Positions 16,395 through 64,000 of a DNA stretch of 64,000 nucleotides are shown piece by piece (position 1 is the stretch's first letter; the number at the start of each line of letters is the position of its first letter). The translations under genes were made by a program, and so were the position numbers. The DNA comes from an uncultured Spirochaetota bacterium (GTDB taxonomy: Bacteria > Spirochaetota > Brevinematia > Brevinematales > JAOACQ01). Where the stretch lies: the NCBI GenBank assembly GCA_963796325.1, contig CAWCLF010000003.1, forward strand, positions 470,788-534,787, read 5' to 3'. The notes under the pieces are model-generated. The model saw only the letters and a program-made list of their open reading frames with translations. It made no database searches and had not been told where the DNA came from.

Positions 16395-17410
16395 TTTGTC
16401 GAATATGCAACAATGTTGCTGCCATTTGAAACCGTGACGAACTTGCCGTTGCCGTAGGCGGCGGAATAAAAGCTGCAGGGACCCGGCAGGGGCGTCAATG
16501 CGGCCGACCAGTTTATCCCGTCGAACGAATATGCAGCCTTCGACGAGATGCTTGACGAAATCGCTATAAAAACGCCGTTGCCGTATCCTACGGAGTACCA
16601 GTTATCCAGGATCGGCATTGGAGCGGCAGTCCAGTTTTTTCCGTCGGTCGAATAATCCGCTGTCGAGATGCCCGTAGCGACGGCTACAAAGACTCCGTTG
16701 CCGTAAACGACTGAATGCCAGTAACTTGCCGAAGTCGTAGAAGAATTCCAGCTTATCCCGTCTGTCGAATATGCCGCCGCAGGTCCGGGGTCGGCGACAG
16801 CCGCGAATATGCCGTTGCCGTAAGCGACTGACATCCAGAAATCGCCCGTACCGGGCATTGTCGAAGGTAACCAGTTTATCCCGTCGGCCGAATAAGCTTC
16901 CCCGGTGCCGGTGGCTACTGCTACAAATTTGCCGCTGCCGTAGGTTACAGAGTTCCAGTTCGCAGATGACGGCATAGTTGAGGAAAGCCAGGTTTTCCCG
17001 TCGTACGAATAAGCCGCATACCCCGAATTACCTACCGCTACAAACATGCCGTTGCCGTAAGCGACCGACATCCAGAAATTGCCCGTACCGGGCATTGATG
17101 AAGGTAACCAGTTTATCCCGTCTGCCGAATAAGCCGCGTTCCCGTCGTTGGCAACCGCTACGAATATATTGTTGCTGAAAGCTACACATTCCCAGCTTAA
17201 TGTAGTATTCGGCAGCTGCGCCACGGCGGAAGCCCAGTTCAGCCCTGCGTGAGCCGAAGACGATGAAGAGGCCGTCGACGAAGCCGAAGACTGCGAACCG
17301 GACGGCCTCGCGCCTGTCTGGCTGATAAAATCAGGCGTAAAGAATAACTGGCAGGAAGCTATAAAAACAACCGCCGGTATTATATGAATCAGCTTAAATA
17401 ATTTTTTAAT
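16391..17410 (-). CDS. Predicted lipoprotein with ~7 beta-propeller-like repeats (SxDGxxW ... YGNGxFVAV)
   Basis: The track ORF starts at GTG 17224. The frame stays open upstream to the TAG at 17420-17422 and encodes I-KKLFKLIHIIPAVVFIASC (signal peptide plus IASC lipobox) followed by a Ser-rich linker. The only plausible initiator is ATT 17408-17410, 5 nt after GGAGG. Seven ~40-aa repeats follow. Confidence 0.6.
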   Translation of the reverse strand: MKKLFKLIHIIPAVVFIASCQLFFTPDFISQTGARPSGSQSSASSTASSSSSAHAGLNWASAVAQLPNTTLSWECVAFSNNIFVAVANDGNAAYSADGINWLPSSMPGTGNFWMSVAYGNGMFVAVGNSGYAAYSYDGKTWLSSTMPSSANWNSVTYGSGKFVAVATGTGEAYSADGINWLPSTMPGTGDFWMSVAYGNGIFAAVADPGPAAAYSTDGISWNSSTTSASYWHSVVYGNGVFVAVATGISTADYSTDGKNWTAAPMPILDNWYSVGYGNGVFIAISSSISSKAAYSFDGINWSAALTPLPGPCSFYSAAYGNGKFVTVSNGSNIVAYSTN

Positions 17411-36389: not shown

Positions 36390-36538
36390 CGGATCTGTCT
36401 CCCTCGATTTGCCGGAACTTCCCGGATTGAATTAAATTATAGATATTATATGGGCGGTTCCAATAAAATTCAATATCGTTAATAATTAGCATTCTAATTA
36501 TTTATAATTCGCCCAATGGTCACTACTTATCCGCCTTG

Positions 36539-36622
36539 CTTGTACCGGCTTGTCCGGTGCTTGTACCGGCTTGTCCGGTGCTTGTACCGGCTTGTCCGGT
36601 GCTTGTACCGGCTTGTCCGGTG
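36539..36622. repeat. Perfect tandem repeat, 4 x 21 bp (gcttgtaccggcttgtccggt)
   Basis: Units at 36539-36559, 36560-36580, 36581-36601 and 36602-36622. Each unit is two ~10/11-bp sub-repeats (cttgtaccgg / cttgtccggtg). Degenerate half-units follow at about 36630 and 36647. Confidence 0.95.
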
Positions 36623-52567: not shown

Positions 52568-53686
52568 TTAAGCCGGAAGCGCTGACAGCCTGTAGTAGTG
52601 ATGTACCAGTCCGCCGAGGATGGGTTTTGAGACAATCCTGCCTTCGGTTTGAGGAATATAGCCTTTGGGAACCTGAAGGCCGATGCCCTGGTGAGGCCGC
52701 AGGCTGTTGTAGTAATTAATATATTCAGCAAGGATATTCCGGAGCTGGTTCTCTGTGAATATTATAAACCAATCCAAGCATTGCCGGCGCAGTGTCCCGA
52801 CGAAACGCTCGGCGACGGGGTTCATATTGGGAGAATACGGAGAAATCCTGATATGTTTGAAATGGAAAAGCTTCCAGCAGAACCAGTAAAACTCGCCCGA
52901 GCCGTCGTGAAGAAGATAAGCTTTAGCAATTCCCATTTCCTCAAGTCTTTGCTCGAAATAATAGAACCGGTTTTTAAGGAATTGAATTGTCGGATGTTTT
53001 GTTACGGCGAACTGGATAATTTCCCTTGTCCGGTAATGGATAATGAAGAACACATAGAACCGGGAGCCTGAAAGTGAATCGACGGTAAGAAAATCGCAGG
53101 CGAACAGGGAACGGATATGAGAAGAAATGAAAACCTTCCAGGAGGGGAACGAAGGAATTTTACCTTGTTTTCTGAATTGGTATAGGACATTGCGGATGGT
53201 TTTCTCATCGAGATATATGCTTAGCTTATGAAGTTCTCCGAGTATGAAAAGAGGACCGCGAAGCGGGTTGTCGAGCTTTATTTGAAGAATAAGCTTCCGG
53301 ACATCGAGGGGAACAGGAGGCCGGCCGGGGGATGAAGCATCAGGTTTGAAAGTCCATCTTTTTTTAATAAGGATCTTGAACCACTTGAGGATTGCCGAAG
53401 GATGGACGATGGAAGAAAGATGCGGTTTAAAGCATTCTAACTGTGAAAGGACGATGAAGAAAATTCTGTCGAACCAATCGATGAAGGGATGTTTTTTTGA
53501 AGATCGTTTAAGTATTTCGATTTCTTTTTGAAGGCGGATATTGTCGATACGCAAATCAAGTATAATTTTCTCATATTCTGAAAGACTTCTGGCAGAGTGA
53601 TGAAACAAAGGTTTTAAAATGGAGAAGCAAAAGCTGTAGAAAAGGATGAAAAAGAGTTTAAACATGGTGGCCTTCCGATTTAACAA
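52568..53686 (-). CDS. rve/DDE integrase-type transposase (different family from the three-copy IS)
   Basis: Candidate D-D-E residues in FLTVDSL, LLHDGSGEF and NPVAERF. C-terminal YNSLRPHQGIG and GGLVHHYYR tail. IS ends not delimited. Confidence 0.75.
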   Translation of the reverse strand: MLNRKATMFKLFFILFYSFCFSILKPLFHHSARSLSEYEKIILDLRIDNIRLQKEIEILKRSSKKHPFIDWFDRIFFIVLSQLECFKPHLSSIVHPSAILKWFKILIKKRWTFKPDASSPGRPPVPLDVRKLILQIKLDNPLRGPLFILGELHKLSIYLDEKTIRNVLYQFRKQGKIPSFPSWKVFISSHIRSLFACDFLTVDSLSGSRFYVFFIIHYRTREIIQFAVTKHPTIQFLKNRFYYFEQRLEEMGIAKAYLLHDGSGEFYWFCWKLFHFKHIRISPYSPNMNPVAERFVGTLRRQCLDWFIIFTENQLRNILAEYINYYNSLRPHQGIGLQVPKGYIPQTEGRIVSKPILGGLVHHYYRLSALPA

Positions 53687-53818: not shown

Positions 53819-54079
53819 ATGAAAATTCACATTGAACCACACACACTTGAACGGGCGGAAGAAAGAGGAACAGACCGGGCTGAAATTATTGAAGTGATTG
53901 AAACAGGATTACCGGTAGAAGCTAAATACAAAAGAATAGGTAAATCGAAAATATTTAATTTTCAAAGACAGAGACTGGGCAAATATTATGAACAAAAGCG
54001 TGTCGAAGTATTTTATAATATTGAAAATGATGAAATTACCACCGTGACGGTATATGTGTTTTATGGTAAATGGCAGTAA
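53819..54079 (+). CDS. DUF4258-like small protein (putative toxin of a two-gene module)
   Basis: 86 aa. The N-terminal H..ERAEERG... pattern resembles DUF4258. Overlaps the next gene by 10 nt. Confidence 0.5.
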   Translation: MKIHIEPHTLERAEERGTDRAEIIEVIETGLPVEAKYKRIGKSKIFNFQRQRLGKYYEQKRVEVFYNIENDEITTVTVYVFYGKWQ

Positions 54080-54300
54080 AGGAGGAAAACATGCAAATAA
54101 TATATAATCCTGGCACAGACCTTTTATATATACGCATTGATGATAAAAAGCAGGATGTGATTAATCAGAGGGTAAGCGAGGAAATGGTGCTGGATATTGG
54201 CGAAGACAATAAAATTGTCGGCATCGAAATACTGGATGCTTCAAAAAGTGTGGATTTAGATAAAGTATTACCTATTAAATACAGTTATGAAAACTCGTAG
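54070..54300 (+). CDS. DUF2283-like small protein (putative antitoxin partner)
   Basis: YNPGTDLLYIRIDD...IVGIEILDASK matches my memory of the DUF2283 pattern (Y.D...D.LYI...G.EIL.AS). 76 aa. Confidence 0.55.
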   Translation: MAVKEENMQIIYNPGTDLLYIRIDDKKQDVINQRVSEEMVLDIGEDNKIVGIEILDASKSVDLDKVLPIKYSYENS

Positions 54301-54427
54301 ATGCGGCGAAGTAATATCTCAATTCTGTAATGAAAATGTAAGCCTTATTAATACGACAGCGCAGGAAGGGTCGTAATGAAGGCCTGCGGGGGCAGAAGGG
54401 AAACTTACAGGTACGACCAGCGTGACC

Positions 54428-55930
54428 AGCGGCACTGGGTGCGAATCTGAAGTAAAAGTCCAGGATTTTGGACTAAAGTAAATAGGCAGATATAAGGATA
54501 AAAAAGAGAAGAAAACACAGGCAATTGAAGGTTGTTTATAGAACTTAGGTAAAGCGAATGTGAAGCAAGGGTAAAAGAAGTCTCTTTAATGCCTTGATTT
54601 TACACAATCCCTGCTAAAACTGGCATATTGGGCAGGAAGCGATGCGGTTTTCCTGAATTCTTCTCAAACGTGCCAGCTCGAATTGAGATCGGATAAAATC
54701 AAGGTCGGGCAGTTTGCCTGAATAAGCCTCGGCGGGAGTCTGGTATTGATGGGCATGATGAGGGCGGACATGGTTGTATTCATGGATAACCTTCTCAAGA
54801 TATTTATCAAGGTCGTTTAGATCGCGGTACTGCCGCAGGAATAGCCAGGAGTATTTCAGGCTTTTATTCACGGCTTCGATCATGCTGTTTGAAAAACGGA
54901 TATGTTTTTGAGCGATCAGATGCTTTATGGTAATTTTATCCTCAAGGTATTGCTTTATTGTGTCGTTATCGTTTTCAGGACCTCCGTCGGTAAGGAAAAT
55001 GATATAAGGGTCTATGGTATCGCTTTGTTTTTTAACGATACTGGAATAAGCATCTTTAAGGTTTGAGAGAGCGATTTCAGCAGAAACACGGAGGGATACT
55101 TTATAGGAGATGACAAACCTGGAAAAGTTATCTGCGATAAGATAAATATAGGCGGTAAGTCCGTCCAATAGTTTCAGGCAGGTAATATCGGCGTGAATTA
55201 TCTCGTTAGGCCGGAAGGCCCTGATACCTTTAGATTGGCGCGGTTTTTTAAAACGTTTCCCGGTAAATCCGAATAACCTGGAATACTTGTACCATGAACC
55301 TCTGCCGATGAATAATGCTTTTAACCTGACGGCTTCGGAATGGACGGCATGGACAGGCCAGCCTGTGTATTTCGGATCAAGCAGAAATTTCTTCATAATG
55401 TTTAGCTCTGACCCTGAAACCTGGTTGGGCCAGACCTTGGGGCATTTATGGATGGGGGAGATAAGGCACCTGGCTTTGACCTGGACGGCCCAGTTGTAAA
55501 ATGTGGAGAGTTTAAGTTTAAAAAATCTGCAGGCCCTTTCAATGGGGATCTTAAAACGGTTGGAGAGGAAATAAACGGCTTTGACGGTCATGTTTTGAAT
55601 GTTATCAAGATAGCCGGAAGGCTTATGGATGAGGGAATCCTGTATTTTTTTATAAAAGCGATAGACATGGCATAGGATGGTAATAGTTATTATCAATTTT
55701 CTGGAATGAGCAAATGTCTTAACCAGAGGCAATAATTGAGATTGAAAATCCCTGTACTCATAACCGAATAGAGAAGAAAGGTTGTAATTCAAGAGATGGT
55801 AGTATGTGGATTTTGAAATCGTTGAGCGGACGGAATTGTAAGAAATAGAGCCTATCTGAAGGGCGAGAGTAAAGTTATGGTCGTATTTTTTATGAGAGCG
55901 CATAAGGGAAACTCCGAATGTTATTATTAT
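54428..55930 (-). mobile_element. IS element copy A (~1.5 kb, single 429-aa rve/DDE transposase)
   Basis: Boundaries are taken from where identity with copies B and C begins (AGCNNCACYGGGTGCGAATCTGAAG at 54428) and decays (~25-30 bp upstream of the ATG). Clear terminal inverted repeats not found by eye. Confidence 0.7.
54614..55903 (-). CDS. IS transposase, copy A (rve/DDE)
   Basis: Candidate D-D-E residues in IIHADIT, FLTDGGPEN and IEAVNKSLK. C-terminal YNHVRPHHAHQYQTPAEAY. About 20 aa differences from copy B by manual comparison. Confidence 0.85.
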   Translation of the reverse strand: MRSHKKYDHNFTLALQIGSISYNSVRSTISKSTYYHLLNYNLSSLFGYEYRDFQSQLLPLVKTFAHSRKLIITITILCHVYRFYKKIQDSLIHKPSGYLDNIQNMTVKAVYFLSNRFKIPIERACRFFKLKLSTFYNWAVQVKARCLISPIHKCPKVWPNQVSGSELNIMKKFLLDPKYTGWPVHAVHSEAVRLKALFIGRGSWYKYSRLFGFTGKRFKKPRQSKGIRAFRPNEIIHADITCLKLLDGLTAYIYLIADNFSRFVISYKVSLRVSAEIALSNLKDAYSSIVKKQSDTIDPYIIFLTDGGPENDNDTIKQYLEDKITIKHLIAQKHIRFSNSMIEAVNKSLKYSWLFLRQYRDLNDLDKYLEKVIHEYNHVRPHHAHQYQTPAEAYSGKLPDLDFIRSQFELARLRRIQENRIASCPICQF

Positions 55931-56024: not shown

Positions 56025-56405
56025 CTATTCATCCAGCAGTTTTATAACGTTCTGAGTGTTGATAAAGTTATTAAAGCCTTTTTTCGGCAAATTTTCAATG
56101 AGTGCTTTATCATTGGTCCATAATGGATAACCGAATTCAACACAGAGAGCAATAAAAGGTGTGTCTTTTTCATCAATTCCCTTACAAAGTTCAATAGCTT
56201 TATCGTAGGCGAATTTTCTGACAGCAATTTTTGGAATTATTATAATTTCCTCGAAAAGATTTTTGATGAACAATCTAAAATCAGAGATCGGCAGTTTCCT
56301 TTTCTTTAAAATGACATCTTCGTATTTTTCAAGTTCTTTCAGGGCAAAGTCAGGCATGTAAAAATGAATTTTCTTAACCAGTTCAATATATCTCCGGTTG
56401 CCCGG
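56025..56405 (-). pseudogene. PIN-domain protein, 5'-truncated by IS copy B
   Basis: C-terminal PIN pattern IDEKDTPFIALCVEFGYPLWTNDKAL. The frame runs without a start into the IS-B terminus at 56406, and the N-terminal segment with the first catalytic Asp is missing. Confidence 0.6.
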
Positions 56406-57908
56406 AGCAACACCGGGTGCGAATCTGAAGTAAAAGTCCAGGATTTTGGAATAAAGTAAATAGACAGATATAAGGATAAAAAAGAGAAGAAAACACAGGC
56501 AATTGAAGGTTGGTTATAGAACTTATGTGAAGTGGAAGTGAAGCGAGTGTAAAAGAAGTCTCTTTAATGCCTTGATTTTACACAATCCCTGCTAAAACTG
56601 GCATATTGGGCAGGAAGCGATGCGGTTTTCCTGAATTCTTCTCAAACGTGCCAGCTCGAATTGAGATCGGATAAAATCAAGGTCGGGCAGTTTGCCTGAA
56701 TAAGCCTCGGCGGGAGTCTGGTATTGATGGGCATGATGAGGGCGGACATGGTTGTATTCATGGATAACCTTCTCAAGATATTTATCAAGGTCGTTTAGAT
56801 CGCGGTACTGCCGCAGGAATAGCCAGGAGTATTTCAGGCTTTTATTCACGGCTTCGATCATACTGTTTGAAAAACGGATATGTTTTTGAGCGATCAGATG
56901 CTTTATGGTAATTTTATCCTCAAGGTATTGCTTTATTGTATCGTTATCGTTTTCAGGACCTCCGTCGGTAAGGAAAATGATGTAAGGGTCTATTGGATTG
57001 CTCTTATTTTTAACGATACTGGAATAAGCATCTTTAAGGTTTGAGAGAGCGATTTCAGCAGAAACGCGGAGGGATACTTTACAGGAGATGACAAACCTGG
57101 AAAAGTTATCTACGATAAGATAAATATAGGCGGTAAGGCCGTCCAATAGTTTCAGGCAGGTAATATCGGCGTGAATTATCTCGTTGGGCCGGAAGGCCCT
57201 GATACCTTTAGATTGGCGCGGTTTTTTAAAACGCTTTCCGGTAAATCTGAATAACCTGGAATACTTGTACCATGAATCTCTGCCGATGAATAATGCTTTT
57301 AACCTGACGGCTTCGGAATGGACGGCATGGACAGGCCAGCCTGTATATTTCGGATCAAGCAGAAATTTCTTCATAGTGTTAAGTTCGGATTCTGAAAGCT
57401 GGTTAGGCCAGACCTTCGGGCATTTATGGATGGGGGAGATAAGGCACCTGGCTTTGACCTGGACGGCCCAGTTGTAAAAAGTGGAAAGTTTAAGTTTAAA
57501 AAATTTGCAGGCCCTTTCAATGGAAATCATAAAACGGTTGGAGAGGAAATAAACGGCTTTGACGGTCATGTTTTGAATGTTATCAAGATAGCCGGAAGGC
57601 TTATAGATTAGTAAGTCCTGTATTTTTTTATAAAAGCGATAGACATGGCATAGGATGGTAATAGTTATTATCAATTTTCTGGAATGAGCAAATGTCTTAA
57701 CCAGAGGCAATAATTGAGATTGATAATCCCTGTACTCATAGCCGAATAGAGAAGAAAGGTTGTAATTCAAGAGATGGTAGTATGTGGATTTTGAAATCAT
57801 TGAGCGGACGGAATCGTAAGAAATAGAGCCTATCTGAAGAGCGAGGGTAAAGTTGTGGTCGTATTTTTTGTGAGAGTGCATAAAAAAACTCCGGTTATTT
57901 TATAGAAA
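56406..57908 (-). mobile_element. IS element copy B
   Basis: Same terminus (agcaacaccgggtgcgaatctgaag) and internal sequence as copy A; same orientation. Confidence 0.7.
56592..57881 (-). CDS. IS transposase, copy B (rve/DDE)
   Basis: 429 aa, ~95% identical to copy A by manual comparison. Confidence 0.85.
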   Translation of the reverse strand: MHSHKKYDHNFTLALQIGSISYDSVRSMISKSTYYHLLNYNLSSLFGYEYRDYQSQLLPLVKTFAHSRKLIITITILCHVYRFYKKIQDLLIYKPSGYLDNIQNMTVKAVYFLSNRFMISIERACKFFKLKLSTFYNWAVQVKARCLISPIHKCPKVWPNQLSESELNTMKKFLLDPKYTGWPVHAVHSEAVRLKALFIGRDSWYKYSRLFRFTGKRFKKPRQSKGIRAFRPNEIIHADITCLKLLDGLTAYIYLIVDNFSRFVISCKVSLRVSAEIALSNLKDAYSSIVKNKSNPIDPYIIFLTDGGPENDNDTIKQYLEDKITIKHLIAQKHIRFSNSMIEAVNKSLKYSWLFLRQYRDLNDLDKYLEKVIHEYNHVRPHHAHQYQTPAEAYSGKLPDLDFIRSQFELARLRRIQENRIASCPICQF

Positions 57909-58342
57909 TTTGGCATAAAAATAGATAAGAATATAAAATAAAAGCAACGGATATGCAATTATTTTTATCGGTCATGGTTATAGGAATAAGGATAGTCAGA
58001 TTATCCCCGCATTACGAGGAAGCGTAATGAGGCTGCGAAACGAAGTGAGCATAGCCGAATTATCACTGAGCGATAGCGAAGGGATAGAGCCGCCGGCGAA
58101 AAACGGCAGTAAGCGGGCGGACTGTTTGAGGGACTTTTTGCCATTTACAATACGAATCTTATTTTTTACAAAGATTCGGCAATAAGATTTTAGCAAAAAG
58201 TACCGAGTTCCGCCCGCAGCCGTTTTGAGCCTGTGCGGCTCAAGCTTCTGAGTACAGCGGGGAAAGTTTTCTTTCTGGTTCGCTTTCTTTTGCTTTTTCA
58301 AAAGAAAGCGAACGGTACTACGACCCCTCCGCCGGAAGGTTT

Positions 58343-60127
58343 ATGACCACAGACCCCATAAGCGACCCGTCGAGGCGGTACTCGCCCGCGGGGCTCAACA
58401 GGTACGTTTACTGCTACAACAGGCCGCTGTATTATACCGACCCGGAGGGAAGGTGGTACCTCGATTTAGGAATCATCGGGATAGGAAACGACGATACTAC
58501 AGGAAACTTCATATTCGGCGTAGGGTTCGGTTTAAGCAATTTTGTCTGGCAACAGGACAGCAGCGGGAATATTTCGAACTACCAGACTTTCGTGGGGCTT
58601 AACATAGCCAACCAGAAGCTCGGAATAGGATACAGCTATGACGAAAAGGCATTATATGACGAGGAAGAATTATCATTCGGAATACAATATTACTGTTTCA
58701 ATGCCAATATCAGTTTTTATCACAAGAAGACGTGGAACAGCAAAGAAGAATGGTGGAGCGTGAGCGGCAGCGCGGGAATCAGCTATGAAGGGATAGGTGT
58801 CGGAGCTGAGGCGGGGATCAGCTCATATACCAACAGCCAGGGACAAACGAAAAAAACCAGCGATATGGGGGTGTACGCGGGTTATAACGAAAACGGCGTA
58901 TTGGTAGGCGTTAATGCACAGTGGAACTATGACACTTACGGGATGTATACGGGAATGAATTTGGGCGTGAGTATAGGCTCTACTTTTGATGGCGGCAACG
59001 GCGAATTATCTTTCGGAACCAACGCATACTTTGACGCTCAGGGGAGATTCATTGGAATTACCGGATCTGTTTCAATACAGCATAGCATTAGTGCTTACGG
59101 CGTAAATATCGGCAGCGGAAGCTTCGGCCTGACCTTTGGAAATGTAAACGGCGGCTGGGTACTGGGGGGCGGAATCAATCTTAATCCGGGAGTGAATCTT
59201 GACAATATGGCGAATGCCGAAGCAGCAAAGATGCCGTATAGTACAAGGCAGACCCTCATAAGTGCAGGAGTGACCCTGCCTGAGTATGGGATAGGGTCGC
59301 CTAACGGGGCAAACTTACCCGGTTTCAACGACTGGCTGATGTTACAGCCTCAGGAAGGTCAAATCAGCACAAATGTTGATACAGGTCAGCAGTATATATA
59401 TCAAAATGGAGAATGGGTTAATTATAATAAGAATTTGAATAATTCAGGAAGTATAATAGAAGTATCACAAACTCAGACAATATCTCTTGAAGAAAATGCT
59501 TCCAAAGCATATGAAAATTTAATGGAGGCTGTAAAATCACAGGATCATGATCCAGATGATATTGTGGGAATAATGTTTTTGAATAAAGAAAAAGATGTTT
59601 CTGGCTTTGGCCATAATGCGATTGCTTTTATTTACGCGGATGGGTCGGTTGATATTTATTCATACAGAGCCACTAATACTGATGATTTTACTATTTTATT
59701 AGGATCAAATGTTCCTGCTACAATGGATAAAAATCATTATGAGGCAGATGATTTTAGTACATTTTTATCTACACAACCACCGAATGACAAATCTTATAAC
59801 CGCTATATAATGATTCCTGTCGATGCAGAATCGGGACAGGCAATGTTAAACAGAGCAGAAGATTATCATATTAACGCTGGTACATATAACATAGTAGGAC
59901 ATAATTGTGAACATGTAGCACAGGACATACTTTCTTACGGCGGCCTCAGTTTTGCTCCGACAAAAAGCGATCAAAATGATGTAAATATATATTTATATGG
60001 ATTTCCTTCCGCAGTTTATAATTATTTTATTTCAACAGGTACGATACCGAACTCTGCGTATAATATAGGTGTAAATGTTGCAAATTTTGAGGGATGGAAT
60101 TTCGGATATATAGGAGTACCAAAATGA
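58343..60127 (+). CDS. Orphan Rhs/YD-repeat C-terminal tip with polymorphic toxin domain (LRAT/NlpC-P60-like His...NCEH)
   Basis: The frame is open from 58229. 58313-58460 encodes RYYDPSAGRFMTTDP...NRYVYCYNRPLYYTDPEGRW, the last YD repeat and the Rhs core end motif. No Rhs repeats lie upstream. A Gly-rich ~300-aa region is followed by GFGHNAIAFIYADG ... YNIVGHNCEHVAQDI. Confidence 0.7.
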   Translation: MTTDPISDPSRRYSPAGLNRYVYCYNRPLYYTDPEGRWYLDLGIIGIGNDDTTGNFIFGVGFGLSNFVWQQDSSGNISNYQTFVGLNIANQKLGIGYSYDEKALYDEEELSFGIQYYCFNANISFYHKKTWNSKEEWWSVSGSAGISYEGIGVGAEAGISSYTNSQGQTKKTSDMGVYAGYNENGVLVGVNAQWNYDTYGMYTGMNLGVSIGSTFDGGNGELSFGTNAYFDAQGRFIGITGSVSIQHSISAYGVNIGSGSFGLTFGNVNGGWVLGGGINLNPGVNLDNMANAEAAKMPYSTRQTLISAGVTLPEYGIGSPNGANLPGFNDWLMLQPQEGQISTNVDTGQQYIYQNGEWVNYNKNLNNSGSIIEVSQTQTISLEENASKAYENLMEAVKSQDHDPDDIVGIMFLNKEKDVSGFGHNAIAFIYADGSVDIYSYRATNTDDFTILLGSNVPATMDKNHYEADDFSTFLSTQPPNDKSYNRYIMIPVDAESGQAMLNRAEDYHINAGTYNIVGHNCEHVAQDILSYGGLSFAPTKSDQNDVNIYLYGFPSAVYNYFISTGTIPNSAYNIGVNVANFEGWNFGYIGVPK

Positions 60128-60157
60128 TAGCGATATATTTTTGGTTTTTAATGTTAT

Positions 60158-61024
60158 TTGCTGCAGAAAAAAATAGTATTTGTTAAAAGCTTACCGGGTG
60201 AGGTAATTTTACCGAATATATCAACAAATGATGATACCGGAATTCTGATAATTAATATGCATGATGGAACGGAACGTCAGATATTGAAAGGGCTTAAATT
60301 TACCCTGGGCGAATGGAACAGAGATAAAAAAAAGATATTATTGTTTAATGATTATTATATTTCAGGCTTTGTCACCAGTTCTGATTATTCTGTATTTGAA
60401 TACGATATTGAAAAGAGTGTTATGAGGCCTATACTTAAAGAGGTTCATTATACTTCTAGACATGAAATAAATTACGAAAGAATCCGTTATATACCTGGCA
60501 AAAATGCAATAAGTTATATTTTTGCTGATGGTTATAAATTACATGATTATAGAAATTACCTTCATATTTATGATCTTGATAGGAAAAAAGATGAAAAGTT
60601 GTTTAGAACATCTAGTTATTATTCATGGGATTCTAACGGTACATCGATTTACTATAATCCAATGAAAGCATATGCTGTTGATAATCATATATTTGAATAT
60701 AACGTTATGACGAAAGAAACAAAAGAACTATTTACAGGTTATACTCCCGAATGTTCTCATAATGGCGAATACATTGCTTATACCAAATATAACGGAGATC
60801 TTGTAGTGAGAGAAATGAAAAACGGGAAGGAATGGCCGATAATGATTGAGGGTTATAATTACCTCTTTTCACCTGATGATAAGTATATAATGTTAAGTAA
60901 AGATTGGAATGAATTGCCTATAGAAAAAGCGAAACAAGTACTATATTACGAATTCAAAACCGGAAAGAGTGGTATATTTATATATGATCGTTCTGGAAAA
61001 GTAAATTGGTATGATTGGAATTGA
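60158..61024 (+). CDS. Candidate immunity protein, beta-propeller-like (PD40/TolB-type degenerate repeats)
   Basis: Lies directly downstream of the toxin. Repeats such as HNGEYIAYTKYNGDLVV and FSPDDKYIMLS. The track start is TTG. An ATG at 60124 in another frame encodes a TM-like 20-mer, separated from this frame by an A7 tract. Confidence 0.5.
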   Translation: MLQKKIVFVKSLPGEVILPNISTNDDTGILIINMHDGTERQILKGLKFTLGEWNRDKKKILLFNDYYISGFVTSSDYSVFEYDIEKSVMRPILKEVHYTSRHEINYERIRYIPGKNAISYIFADGYKLHDYRNYLHIYDLDRKKDEKLFRTSSYYSWDSNGTSIYYNPMKAYAVDNHIFEYNVMTKETKELFTGYTPECSHNGEYIAYTKYNGDLVVREMKNGKEWPIMIEGYNYLFSPDDKYIMLSKDWNELPIEKAKQVLYYEFKTGKSGIFIYDRSGKVNWYDWN

Positions 61025-61773
61025 ACGCAAAAGCAATGATTTTCTCGTACTCTACTAAGAAAATAATTTTAAGTAATAAAAGAAATTGAAGGGCTTATTC
61101 CAGCAGAAATTCAGTAGTAAAACTGCCCAATGTTGTAATACACATAACGCACAAAATGTGAATGGGAGCAGTCACGCAATTCAGTCCCATTTGGAGTGAT
61201 ATATTATTGTTATCTAATGAGATAAAAAGATCAATCGCAGTCCCTTTCCAAGATAAAATACGAGAATATTGCATAAAATATGGTAGTATTAACCGCTTAT
61301 ATAGAGCATTTTAACCATAAAATGGGACTATTGTGCGGGTAGAAGTCCCACATGTAAACGGCTCCCTGGAGGCACATAAATTCGAGGACAGGTATCGAAT
61401 TTATGTTGGGAAACATAACGCACAGCGGTGTATGAGATATCAGGCCCTGATGAATATTGTAGGGATCTTGAGCGATTTAGGATGACACTATACGCAACAG
61501 CAATGCGTGTTATAACTTCATAAATATCAATATGTTTACAAAAACCGCCGGTATTTGTAACTCCATCTTCCGGTATGAAAGCATCGGGTCAAAAGTGGAC
61601 CCTAATTGTATATATGCCGGATAGTTCAACCGATATTTTGATATGATTTCCAGGGGGAGGGTTGACTGCGAATAGGCTGCGGAGACAGGCTCTAACCCGG
61701 CGGCCCGAGAGGCGGGCAAAGGGATATCGAGGGCTTTCTAAACGACAATATTTTGCAGGAATTGAGGACAATG

Positions 61774-62235
61774 TTATTTAGAAAGCAGTTCTTCGGGGGA
61801 ATGAACGGTAATTTCTTTATAAATCTCGAAGTCTTTTTTATCGTAAGTAAGGATGTTTTTGATTCCATTTTCCAGCATAGTAGCCGTGATTGCGGCATCG
61901 TGGATATTTTTACCGGAGATTTGATATTTTTCGGCAATTTTCATGAGCCGTTCAATAGTTTCAATTTCGATGTTTAAAACCTCGAAGTTTTGCCTGAACT
62001 CTTTGACCTTCCGGTTTGCCTCTTTTATTGGCAGAGGATTTTTGAGGAATTTCTTATTAGTTGAAACCGAGAGAAACTCTCTTATTATCTGTGTAGAAAT
62101 GAAAAGATGATGCTGACTTTCAACCAACTGCCTTAATATCTCAACGGAACTTGAATATTTTATGGGATCGAAGTCTTCAAGAGAAGCGTATACGAGGATG
62201 TTAGTATCGATAAAAAGCTTAGATTCTCGGTTCAT
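61774..62235 (-). CDS. vapC: PIN-domain toxin (VapC-like)
   Basis: N-terminal KLFIDTNILVYA with catalytic Asp; later HDAAITATM. ATG 62235 is preferred over 62334 and overlaps the upstream antitoxin gene by 17 nt. Confidence 0.75.
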   Translation of the reverse strand: MNRESKLFIDTNILVYASLEDFDPIKYSSSVEILRQLVESQHHLFISTQIIREFLSVSTNKKFLKNPLPIKEANRKVKEFRQNFEVLNIEIETIERLMKIAEKYQISGKNIHDAAITATMLENGIKNILTYDKKDFEIYKEITVHSPEELLSK

Positions 62236-62443
62236 AAATGTCTTCCCTGGTAAAGTCTTGAATTTTACCGCCGCATTTGAAAGTAGTCCAATGGAATTTA
62301 GTCTTCTTTTTCGTTGTTGACACTTCATTTCCAAGGACGACTACTTCAGCTTTGCGATTGAACAAATCGCGCAATTTTGCGGGGAGGACGATCTTGATTT
62401 CTCCTTCATGATTGATATTTACATCAGTTTTATATGCCAGCAT
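62219..62443 (-). CDS. vapB: AbrB/SpoVT-type antitoxin (VapB-like)
   Basis: 74 aa with a swapped-hairpin-like segment GEIKIVLPAKLRDLFNRKAEVVVLG. Immediately upstream of, and overlapping, the PIN gene. Confidence 0.6.
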   Translation of the reverse strand: MLAYKTDVNINHEGEIKIVLPAKLRDLFNRKAEVVVLGNEVSTTKKKTKFHWTTFKCGGKIQDFTREDIYEPRI

Positions 62444-62456
62444 TTTACAGCTCCCA

Positions 62457-62798
62457 CTATTTCGAGTAAGCCACTTTAGCTTTAGTGTCTCTTAAAAAAG
62501 CGTCTAAAACGGTCAAAATATGCTGTTTTTCCTGTTCGGGTAAATGCTCAATTTGGGAAAGCCTATCGAGCATTTTCTTATCTTTCAATTCGGTCAGGAG
62601 GTCGTTTTCATCGACCAGATAGTCGATACTGACATCCAGGGAATCTGCTATTTTTTTAGCTACTTCGATTGAAGGTTTTATTTCATTCCGTTCATATCTG
62701 CCTACAATCGGGCCGCTAGTGCCTATCTTTTCCGCGAGTTCTTGCTGGGACCATCCTTTTTGCTTTCTAAGCATAAAAACTTTATCTCCAAACCTCAT
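62457..62798 (-). CDS. XRE-family helix-turn-helix transcriptional regulator
   Basis: HTH_3 pattern LRKQKGWSQQELAEKIGTSGPIVGRYERNEIKPSIEVAKKIADSL. Confidence 0.85.
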   Translation of the reverse strand: MRFGDKVFMLRKQKGWSQQELAEKIGTSGPIVGRYERNEIKPSIEVAKKIADSLDVSIDYLVDENDLLTELKDKKMLDRLSQIEHLPEQEKQHILTVLDAFLRDTKAKVAYSK

Positions 62799-63013: not shown

Positions 63014-63423
63014 ATGAAAGTGATAGTATTCAGCAATCAAAAGGGCGGAGTGGGTAAGACCACGACCACGAGAGAATTAGGGATTTACCTTGCGGAAAAG
63101 AGTTATCGTGTGTTATTAATCGACGGGGACCCGCAGGCGAACCTTTCTAAAAGCCTTGTGGATAATCCAGGCTTCGGTCTATACGAAGCCTTGAGCGGCG
63201 GGGAATGCGAGCCGGAGGACGTTAAATTGAATTTATCCTTACTCTCCGGGGGGATAAAGCTTGCGGGGCTTGAAAAGAGCCTGATCGGGGAGCTGGGCGC
63301 GTTTACCCGCCTGCGGGACTTATTGGAGCAGGAAATTTTCCGGACCTATGACTTTATACTGATAGACAGCCCACCGTCATTGGGGGTGCTTACAGGCAAC
63401 GCCTTGACTGCCTCCGGCTGCCA
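63014..63423 (+). pseudogene. parA: ParA/Soj-type partition ATPase, 3'-truncated by IS copy C
   Basis: Deviant Walker A NQKGGVGKTTT and IDGDPQANLS. The reading frame runs into the IS-C terminus at 63424 and stops at 63451. Only ~137 native residues remain. Confidence 0.75.
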
Positions 63424-64000
63424 AGCAGCACCGGGTGCGAATCTGAAGTAAAAGTCCAGGATTTTGGACTAAAGTAAATAGGCAGATATAAGGATAAAAA
63501 AGAGAAGAAAACACAGGCAATTGAAGGTTGGTTATAGAACTTATGTGAAGTGGAAGTGAAGCGAGTGTAAAAGAAGTCTCTTTAATGCCTGGATTTTACA
63601 CAATCCCTGCTAAAACTGGCATATAGGGCAGGAAGCGAGGCGGTTTTCCTGAATTCTTCTCAAACGCGCCAGCTCGAATTGAGATCGGATAAAATCAAGG
63701 TCGGGCAGTTTGCCTGAATAAGCCTCGGCGGGAGTCTGGTATTGATGGGCATGATGAGGGCGGACATGGTTGTATTCATGAATAGCCTTCTCAAGATATT
63801 GCTCAAGGTCGTTTAGATTGCGGTATTGCCGCAAGAATAGCCAGGAGTATTTCAGGCTTTTGTTCACGGCTTCGATCATGCTGTTTGAAAAATGTATATG
63901 CTTTTGAGCTATCAGATGCTTTATGGTAATTTTATCCTCAAGGTATTGCTTTATTGTGTCGTTATCGTTTTCAGGACCTCCGTCGGTAAGGAAAATGATA
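63424..64000 (-). mobile_element. IS element copy C (partial, continues past window end)
   Basis: Same terminus (agcagcaccgggtgcgaatctgaag) and the same downstream 185-bp non-coding end with the agtcca/tggact hairpin as copies A and B. Confidence 0.7.
63610..64000 (-). CDS. IS transposase, copy C (C-terminal part; N-terminus outside window)
   Basis: The frame stays open upstream of the track's internal Met at 63879 (..KHIHFSNSMIEAVNKSLKY..). Homologous to the C-termini of copies A and B, with a few substitutions. Confidence 0.8.
   Translation of the reverse strand, partial: IIFLTDGGPENDNDTIKQYLEDKITIKHLIAQKHIHFSNSMIEAVNKSLKYSWLFLRQYRNLNDLEQYLEKAIHEYNHVRPHHAHQYQTPAEAYSGKLPDLDFIRSQFELARLRRIQENRLASCPICQF

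Follow-up and report, generated by a model that had tools for sequence, protein, structure and literature searches.

Tox-Act1, an effector of the Salmonella pathogenicity island 6 (SPI-6) type VI secretion system (T6SS), is a permuted NlpC/P60 enzyme with the catalytic residues H43 and C151 (PMC12994826). It cleaves phosphatidylglycerol and phosphatidylethanolamine, is periplasmic, and is paired with a membrane-associated immunity protein (PMC12994826). RHS core protein is a frequent annotation of its homologues, as for one in Leptospira santarosai, and Lnb_N/DUF4105 is its sister clade (PMC12994826). TseH of Vibrio cholerae is a second permuted NlpC/P60 toxin, initially proposed as a peptidase and now described as a phospholipase (PMC12994826). 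These two are the closest characterised toxins to the protein tip described here, Tox-Act1 being compared by its description. The tip is encoded in a 64,000-nucleotide stretch of DNA from an uncultured Spirochaetota bacterium (contig CAWCLF010000003.1, positions 470,788 to 534,787), hereafter called the window. Positions 58313-61024 of the window are likely to hold a displaced, orphan 3' cassette of an Rhs gene, of the Spirochaetota/Brevinematales type, with a permuted NlpC/P60 toxin, a barrel-like module and an immunity gene.

Two other described systems are relevant to the layout of this locus. In the polymorphic toxin systems of Enterobacteria, orphan rhs-CT/immunity cassettes sit downstream of full-length rhs genes (PMC3482391). 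The window cassette resembles these in that the core end, a variable tip and a dedicated immunity gene are kept, with the shell and the start of the gene missing. It differs in that its block of Rhs homology consists of 48 core residues, that insertion sequence (IS) copies and a probable palindromic junction flank it, and that its immunity gene is apparently frameshifted. In contact-dependent inhibition, the C-terminal half of CdiA (FHA-2) becomes inserted in proteoliposomes of the target membrane, and cleavage of the toxin follows (PMC13625785).

The forward frame that encodes the tip opens at 58229, straight after a TGA (58226-58228), and runs for 632 codons to the TGA at 60125-60127. Residues are numbered along this frame. 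An earlier sequence-only reading had described the frame and quoted three peptides from it, ERYYDPSAGRF...DPEGRW (residues 28-76), GFGHNAIAFIYADGSV and YNIVGHNCEHVAQDI, and all of these are present. The first ATG, at 58343, gives a 594-amino-acid open reading frame (ORF) that is 100% identical to the public gene call P0001, on a contig of 602,571 bp. NCBIfam TIGR03696 (Rhs_assc_core) matches residues 25-74 (E 3.4e-11, 43.5 bits, cut-off 32.5), which agrees with the earlier description of an Rhs-core end followed by a polymorphic tip. The match spans profile positions 32-75 of 76 only, the N side of the core being cut off. The core-end hallmark of Rhs proteins, DPxG...DPxG[LWF], takes the form of YYDPSAGRF and DPEGRW. 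Rhs tips are normally released after the DPxG motifs of the core. A search of the whole protein against PDB sequences gives no match.

The toxin domain belongs to a family that can be recognised by sequence. A HMMER search with residues 336-632 against 1.84 billion cluster representatives retrieves 77 homologues, 16 of them at E <= 1e-10, and the matches cover about residues 417-630. Four positions are invariant in an alignment of 32 domains: the Gly-His pair that includes His462, Cys560, and the proline of a C-terminal (T)IPNxAY motif (60047-60049). The candidates for catalysis are His462 (59612-59614) and Cys560 (59906-59908), which lie 98 residues apart. The cysteine is also invariant in a further 41 family members. 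The sequence-only reading had taken the motif NCEH as a signature of the LRAT/HRASLS branch of the NlpC/P60 clan. Of this motif only the cysteine is invariant; its histidine is not conserved, and the residues after the cysteine vary (NCNH, NCNY, NCDN, NCEF).

The same reading had expected a profile match of the C-terminus to the LRAT/NlpC_P60 clan. The LRAT family (PF04970) scores 14.8 bits on the whole protein and 16.8 bits on the domain alone (E 0.0084), which is below the gathering cut-off of 24.3. Across 78 family sequences, weak Pfam matches to enzyme domains are more frequent for TseH (12), Peptidase_C97/PPPDE (9) and Lnb_N/DUF4105 (6) than for LRAT (3), and DUF2459 accounts for one more. 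The best family members reach E-values of 8.4e-5 for TseH, 8.3e-5 for C97, 3.7e-4 for LRAT and 6.5e-4 for Lnb_N, and the other Pfam matches in the family are to accessory or fused domains. TseH, PPPDE, Lnb_N and LRAT are all permuted papain-like families of the NlpC/P60 type. When the family profile is compared with PDB sequences, the top nine matches are PLAAT/HRASLS chains (E 0.02-0.05), aligned at the Cys helix, and the sequence link to HRASLS enzymes is limited to that helix.

Structure prediction points the same way. The AlphaFold2 (AF2) model of the toxin domain, built on the 32-sequence alignment, has a predicted local distance difference test score (pLDDT) of 92.4 and a predicted template modelling score (pTM) of 0.90. 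The histidine is the first residue of strand 47-54 and the cysteine the first residue of helix 145-154, an arrangement typical of papain-like enzymes. In Foldseek comparisons the top PDB match is Aichivirus 2A (E 0.065, prob 0.85), and the top BFVD match is a picornavirus polyprotein (E 2.9e-4, prob 1.0). Aichivirus 2A is an H-box/NC protein of the LRAT group. By the convergence of individually weak evidence, membership of the toxin in the permuted papain-like NlpC/P60 clan is well supported, in line with what the sequence-only reading had proposed from the spacing of His and Cys. Membership in LRAT proper, its narrower claim, is not supported. The tip represents an unannotated sister family, although an Rhs tip of this enzyme type is already known.

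Tox-Act1 and TseH share with the window tip the position of a C-terminal polymorphic-toxin domain and a histidine followed about 100 residues later by a cysteine (H43/C151 compared with H462/C560, the latter with a spacing of 98). The immunity proteins are membrane-associated or exported, Tox-Act1 and TseH act in the periplasm, and the window family weakly matches both TseH and Lnb_N/DUF4105. It differs in that the Pfam TseH match is not significant even in the best member (E 8.4e-5), that TseH is missing from its top PDB fold matches, and that it has the extra conserved (T)IPNxAY motif with its invariant proline. LRAT/HRASLS (PLAAT) proteins likewise have the histidine before the cysteine, and their cysteine stands at a helix start in an N-C-x-H-like motif. 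Together with the picornavirus 2A H-NC proteins, they provide the top profile matches and the best fold matches. The window domain is larger, with about 215 residues and extra helices compared with about 120-130 residues, and the two can be aligned only over some 30-40 residues around the cysteine. Its LRAT score is below the cut-off, and the histidine of NCEH is not a conserved feature.

Members of the toxin family are found on several carriers. These include RHS repeats (6 members), Phage_GPD/VgrG (1) and WXG100 (1), and also proteins with signal peptides. Six members are fused to PG_binding_1, PG_binding_3 or LysM domains. A tblastn search of the toxin and immunity proteins against plasmids gives no match.

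Between the core end and the toxin lies a Gly-rich region, residues 77-335, with 17% Gly and 10% Asn. The sequence-only reading had left it unclassified; it is instead a conserved pre-toxin module that is predicted to be barrel-like. The module is kept in 11 Rhs tips (P0002, P0082, P0003, P0004, L001-L003 and L005-L008), with 76% identity to P0082 and 56% to P0002 (residues 29-335, core end included). In all 11 it follows directly after DPxG and precedes a linker and a locus-variable tip. The toxins that it carries include an M23 peptidase, identified by Pfam, and lipase-like (GQSLGG), papain-like, HExxH and M15-like tips, identified by eye. In most members the module starts with a hydrophobic stretch that resembles a glycine zipper, and this stretch is shortened in the window, P0002 and P0082.

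In the AF2 model, the module forms 16 antiparallel strands of 10-16 residues each, joined by short turns. The top 50 Foldseek matches in the PDB are all transmembrane beta-barrels (E 2e-3 to 1.3e-2, TM-scores 0.37-0.52), among them BamA, OprD/Occ, OmpC, AlgE, OmpG, VDAC, TamA and Sam50. The hydrophobic moment of the module at a period of two residues is far above that of shuffles (z = +4.3 to +4.7) and helical periodicity is depleted (z -3.1), and the toxin domain, used as a control, gives z of about 0. Pfam OMP_b-brl matches the L001 module at E 3.7e-4 with no cut-off listed, and scores 17.9 bits on the whole L001 protein, where the cut-off is 28.7; none of the Pfam outer-membrane protein (OMP) families passes its threshold. 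On this modelling, a transmembrane-type beta-barrel fold is somewhat favoured. No published description of a barrel-like module in Rhs proteins was found, and the module is the more novel part of the cassette, the toxin itself being of a known type.

That the module serves to deliver the toxin across the target outer membrane is a tentative idea, and rather an unlikely one. Alternatively, it may anchor the protein in the outer membrane or vesicles of the producer, or have no membrane role. The likeness to CdiA FHA-2 is a functional analogy only: in both cases a segment just upstream of the toxin is proposed to assemble in the target outer membrane and deliver the toxin to the periplasm. The two have no sequence relationship or established structural one, an Rhs shell takes the place of a two-partner-secretion filament, and insertion of the module is hypothetical.

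Relatives of the cassette are few. A search of 5.8 billion proteins gave 4 matches, and P0082 was added by a later search. Scans of genome and metagenome contigs gave 8 loci, 7 of which were analysed; the named sources are metagenome-assembled genomes (MAGs) of an uncultured Brevinematales and an uncultured Spirochaetota bacterium. P0002 is an RHS-repeat protein of 1104 amino acids that shares 56% identity with the window protein over 312 residues. The locus L002 (887-11695) encodes an Rhs protein of 3602 amino acids in the order shell, core, Gly-rich module, linker and M23 peptidase. By eye, its N-terminus is Sec-signal-like and not a PAAR/VgrG-type T6SS adaptor, and its size is very large for an Rhs protein. 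The C-terminal fragment released in the L002-type clade would have about 520-560 residues (644 in P0003), apparently a large cargo for an Rhs shell to enclose.

Several relatives are orphans, and L002 with L003, like the L006 array, shows the canonical layout known from Enterobacteria. About 22 kb downstream of L002, on the same contig, lies L003, an 881-residue orphan with a different tip. It keeps about 320 residues of shell, which by eye, not by computation, are about 80% like the L002 shell. In L006, a tip, its immunity gene, an additional gene, an orphan and another immunity gene follow one another in tandem. The metagenome orphans L005 (31-1884) and L006 (3563-5590) do not differ in the core, the module or the start of the linker, and carry unrelated toxins thereafter; on this evidence, toxin exchange can occur downstream of the module. 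At least two further Rhs C-terminal fragments, P0003 and P0082, lie on the 602,571-bp contig outside the window, and both are called from a MTTDPISDPSRRY start, like P0001. P0003 has the lipase-like GQSLGG tip, and P0082 is truncated just after the module. The paralogues seen on this contig are orphan-like only. To judge from these sequences, orphan cassettes are normal in the Spirochaetota/Brevinematales-associated Rhs clade.

The gene just downstream is the putative cognate immunity gene. Its ATG at 60124 overlaps the toxin stop codon (ATGA) and opens a frame reading MIAIYFWFLMLFAAEK..., with a stop at 60186; the 20-codon product, MIAIYFWFLMLFAAEKNSIC, is hydrophobic and signal-like. The main ORF (60158-61024) encodes 288 amino acids and lies one frame apart. 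A run of seven A residues (A7, 60167-60173) separates the two, and one A fewer would fuse them. The apparent frameshift may have arisen by real mutation or phase variation, or may reflect an error in sequencing the A7 homopolymer.

The 288-residue product has no Pfam match, and NCBIfam gives only a faint TolB-propeller match. Over its full length it is 29% identical (E 1e-28) to a 331-residue protein encoded on L009, a 2.9-kb metagenome contig, by a gene that overlaps the stop codon of the toxin homologue P0022, which matches the family profile at E 3.4e-41. In L009 the toxin reading frame runs in from the contig start, and the first part that it encodes is the end of the Gly-rich module. L009 repeats the whole architecture, since module end, toxin and immunity gene are all present. 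The neighbouring proteins in L009 and L010 start with lipoprotein-type signals (...GFSSC and ...LFSGC), and the 288-residue window ORF starts without one. Whether the frameshift is a mutation or a sequencing error, the ancestral immunity protein appears from these sequences to have been exported, which would indicate an envelope site of toxin action.

In intact Rhs proteins of this clade, an autoproteolytic core would release a fragment starting at about DPEGRW, as established Rhs biology suggests. The fragment would begin with the amphipathic, Gly-rich beta module of about 260 residues, predicted to form an outer-membrane-type barrel. A linker of about 80 residues would follow, and then the 215-residue permuted NlpC/P60-type Cys hydrolase, with Cys560 as the putative nucleophile and His462 as the putative general base. 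The toxin would most likely act in the periplasm or envelope of a rival cell, and would most likely be a (phospho)lipid acyl-ester hydrolase or acyltransferase similar to Tox-Act1 and TseH. An exported, beta-propeller-like immunity protein would neutralise it. An envelope site of action is suggested because homologues of the immunity protein have lipoprotein signals, because the toxins on the same module include an M23 peptidase and, by eye, lipase-like, papain-like and HExxH tips, and because six family members are fused to peptidoglycan-binding and LysM domains.

A tblastn search of the window with P0002 gives two matches, one at 58313-59233 (P0002 residues 528-830, 56% identity) and one to a relic of 27 codons at 54346-54426. 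The sequence-only reading had stated that no Rhs shell repeats precede the cassette. This holds for the adjacent DNA, where a contiguous YD-repeat shell is absent; the relic, 3.9 kb upstream on the same strand, is the only shell sequence. It has a stop codon before it and abuts IS copy A. Since the L003 orphan keeps the corresponding part of the shell, the relic suggests that the window once held an L003-type orphan. Between the relic (P0002 residues 335-361) and the start of the tip (residue 528), 166 residues are missing. Removing the IS copies would not restore the gene, since these residues and everything upstream of the relic are gone. Target-site duplications are not evident at the IS ends.

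The other upstream features that had been described, IS copy B (56392-57893) and hairpin-rich non-coding DNA (57894-58312), are present. The spacer between IS copy B and the core has no Rhs homology in any frame, and an Rfam scan of it gives a sub-threshold GA-cis match only. The stretch 57800-61400 contains no intrinsic terminator-like site. At its end is a perfect hairpin that is unique in the window. Protein homology to P0002 begins at R29 (codon 58313-58315), and 58313 is the last base of the hairpin. The right arm encodes (S)KESE, similar to the DKES that is conserved where the core begins in relatives such as L006 (GHYFDKESKLYYARARFYNP). As the right arm is Rhs coding sequence resembling DKES, the left arm probably repeats the first retained Rhs codons in inverted orientation, and the hairpin is probably a palindromic rearrangement junction.

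Recombinases were considered because of the orphans in L001 and L003. In these two MAGs (L001 7664-9791, L003 6616-8902), an overlapping pair of tyrosine-recombinase genes is followed, 200-260 bp further downstream, by an orphan Rhs fragment. The pairs are homologous and collinear (35% and 38% identity, E 2e-73 and 1e-60), and the arrangement may be that of a mobile toxin cassette associated with recombinases. The window contains no tyrosine-recombinase relic, and site-specific recombinase-mediated shuffling was rejected for this locus on that ground. The spacers upstream of orphans in different loci have no common sequence.

The window cassette is regarded as degenerate because of the shell relic, the IS copies, the core cut at profile position 32 and the apparent frameshift in the immunity gene; P0082, truncated after the module, is a further case. 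An IS-associated rearrangement probably stranded the cassette, which is probably not deliverable as it stands, and the window copy is probably a decaying remnant. Of the earlier proposal, an orphan or displaced rhs-CT module of the kind used for toxin switching, the orphan without a contiguous shell remains. The clean module does not, given the relic, the IS copies, the truncated core and the apparently frameshifted immunity gene.

Several observations weigh against this reading as a whole or in part. No match of the window protein to a family of the NlpC/P60 clan reaches its curated threshold, and Foldseek finds no PDB match to the toxin model at E <= 0.001, with TseH outside the top 50. In an hhalign comparison with human PLAAT3, only 39 columns at the Cys helix align, with 64% probability. 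The fusions to peptidoglycan-binding domains suit a peptidoglycan substrate as well as a lipid. The module model, based on six sequences, is of low confidence (pLDDT 55.8, with 60-76 across the core, and pTM 0.47), and barrels of any kind will be matched by a beta meander. The A7 frameshift may be a sequencing error. The 594-codon ORF is undamaged, which argues against long-standing decay.

For the toxin, the alternative is that the tip acts on peptidoglycan as an amidase or endopeptidase, as NlpC/P60 enzymes classically do, and is not directed at lipids. The six fusions to PG_binding_1, PG_binding_3 or LysM are consistent with it, as are the M23 peptidase and the M15-like tips found on the same module, and TseH was itself first proposed as a peptidase. 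However, the permuted order of His and Cys goes with acyl-lipid substrates in LRAT/PLAAT, YiiX, Lnb, Tox-Act1 and TseH, the last by liposome assays (PMC12994826), and the best structural and sequence neighbours of the tip are PLAAT and H-NC proteins. A peptidoglycan substrate is possible and the less probable of the two. Similar doubt attaches to the idea that the Gly-rich region forms no membrane barrel and is either a beta-rich spacer, soluble or disordered, or a Gly-rich segment for translocation or receptor binding like those of colicins. The low model confidence, Foldseek E-values of only 2e-3 to 1e-2 with TM-scores of 0.4-0.5, and the lack of an above-threshold Pfam OMP family all fit it, and a 16-strand barrel, once folded, would not easily be packaged in an Rhs shell. 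On the other side are the 50 transmembrane barrels among 50 top fold matches, the long strands with short turns, the contrast of the period-2 signal with the helical one and with the toxin control, and the OMP_b-brl match of L001. A segment without a barrel is a minority possibility.

The remaining alternatives concern the locus as a whole. If the 594-residue ORF from ATG 58343 were a working stand-alone toxin gene, exported by another route, its intact frame and the shared MTTDPISDPSRRY start of P0001, P0003 and P0082 would be explained, and a promoter-like site does lie at 58138-58165. The shared Met, however, is simply the first ATG that the conserved core contains, and this core is cut off within the domain. 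Frame reading and a Pfam scan reveal no signal peptide or other trafficking domain in the 58229-60127 product. Promoter-like matches (18, compared with 12.2 +/- 2.9 expected in shuffles) are barely above the background, and making the toxin beside a frameshifted immunity gene would harm the producer. A stand-alone gene is improbable. Least credible of all is that the rhs gene is in fact complete and only a fault of assembly makes it look truncated upstream, an outcome that the sequence-only reading had named as fatal to its interpretation. Repeated IS copies are classic sites of misassembly, yet these copies differ by about 4% and can be told apart, and the window lies within a 602,571-bp contig. 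Neither IS flank continues the Rhs frame, and the 166 residues are missing even with the IS copies removed. A displaced orphan cassette with a permuted NlpC/P60 toxin remains the preferred reading.

Features of the cassette and of the DNA upstream of it (positions in the window; res, residues of the 632-codon frame unless P0002 is named).
Feature	Positions	Strand	Basis
27-codon Rhs YD-repeat shell relic (YDSAGRVVMKACGGRRETYRYDQRD)	54346..54426	+	tblastn with P0002 res 335-361, 85% identity, E 2e-9
IS copy A, with rve-type transposase ORF 54614-55903	54428..55916	-	95.8% identical over 1484 nt to copy B
PIN_2 domain gene, bystander between two IS copies	56025..56357	-	Pfam PIN_2, E 2.4e-15
IS copy B, with transposase ORF 56592-57881	56392..57893	-	Pfam rve_3/rve match of transposase
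419-bp non-coding spacer, rich in inverted repeats	57894..58312	.	no Rhs homology in any frame; no significant Rfam match
Perfect hairpin, 15-bp stem and 6-nt loop (GTTCGCTTTCTTTTG / CAAAAGAAAGCGAAC)	58278..58313	+	right arm ends where Rhs homology begins
C-terminal end of Rhs-associated core (RYYDPSAGRF...YYTDPEGRW), N-truncated, with DPxG motifs	58313..58456	+	TIGR03696; near-identical to P0002, P0003 and P0082
Gly-rich pre-toxin module, res 77-335, predicted barrel-like	58457..59233	+	homology to P0002/P0082, AF2, Foldseek, hydrophobic moment
Linker between module and toxin, res 336-415	59234..59473	+	outside P0002-homologous segment; mostly upstream of toxin-domain matches (best stretch starts at res 417)
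Toxin domain, res 416-632	59474..60124	+	77 homologous cluster representatives, invariant residues, AF2 model
Putative cognate immunity gene, apparently frameshifted	60124..61024	+	homology to L009 neighbour

A third IS copy (C) extends from 63412 to the end of the window and interrupts a ParA-like gene. The cassette lies in an island of small genes of the toxin-antitoxin type (53819-54300, 56025-56357, 61774-62798 and 63014-63451). These comprise a DUF4258/DUF2283 pair, PIN_2, a PIN gene with an HTH_3 regulator, and the ParA-like ATPase gene cut by IS copy C. Another, different rve-type IS is found at 52568-53686. Comparison of the window with itself by BLAST also reveals two repeats unrelated to the cassette: a perfect 44-nt match offset by 42 nt (36537-36580 and 36579-36622), and a 92-nt pair with 93% identity (16806-16897 and 17043-17134).

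Permuted NlpC/P60 toxins on Rhs carriers have been characterised only recently (Tox-Act1, 2026). The family to which this locus leads is an unannotated sister of these; its 77 cluster representatives occur on carriers of the Rhs, VgrG, WXG100-type and secreted kinds, and its immunity partner is conserved. Since the window copy is probably a decaying remnant, the value of the finding is in the family and the architecture and not in the locus itself.

[quoted passage not shown] The place of the barrel-like module is exactly between the site of Rhs release and the toxin. Because of this position, and because an M23 peptidase (by Pfam) and other toxins that look envelope-acting are carried on it, the module is a concrete candidate for the delivery step. 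One speculative proposal, which is given a low probability, is that it is a self-inserting outer-membrane barrel released with the toxin, which would carry envelope toxins (NlpC/P60-type, M23, lipase-like and others) across the rival outer membrane or anchor them in it. If this were true, Sec-exported spirochaete Rhs proteins would gain a T6SS-free delivery route, like the FHA-2 step of CdiA but built differently.

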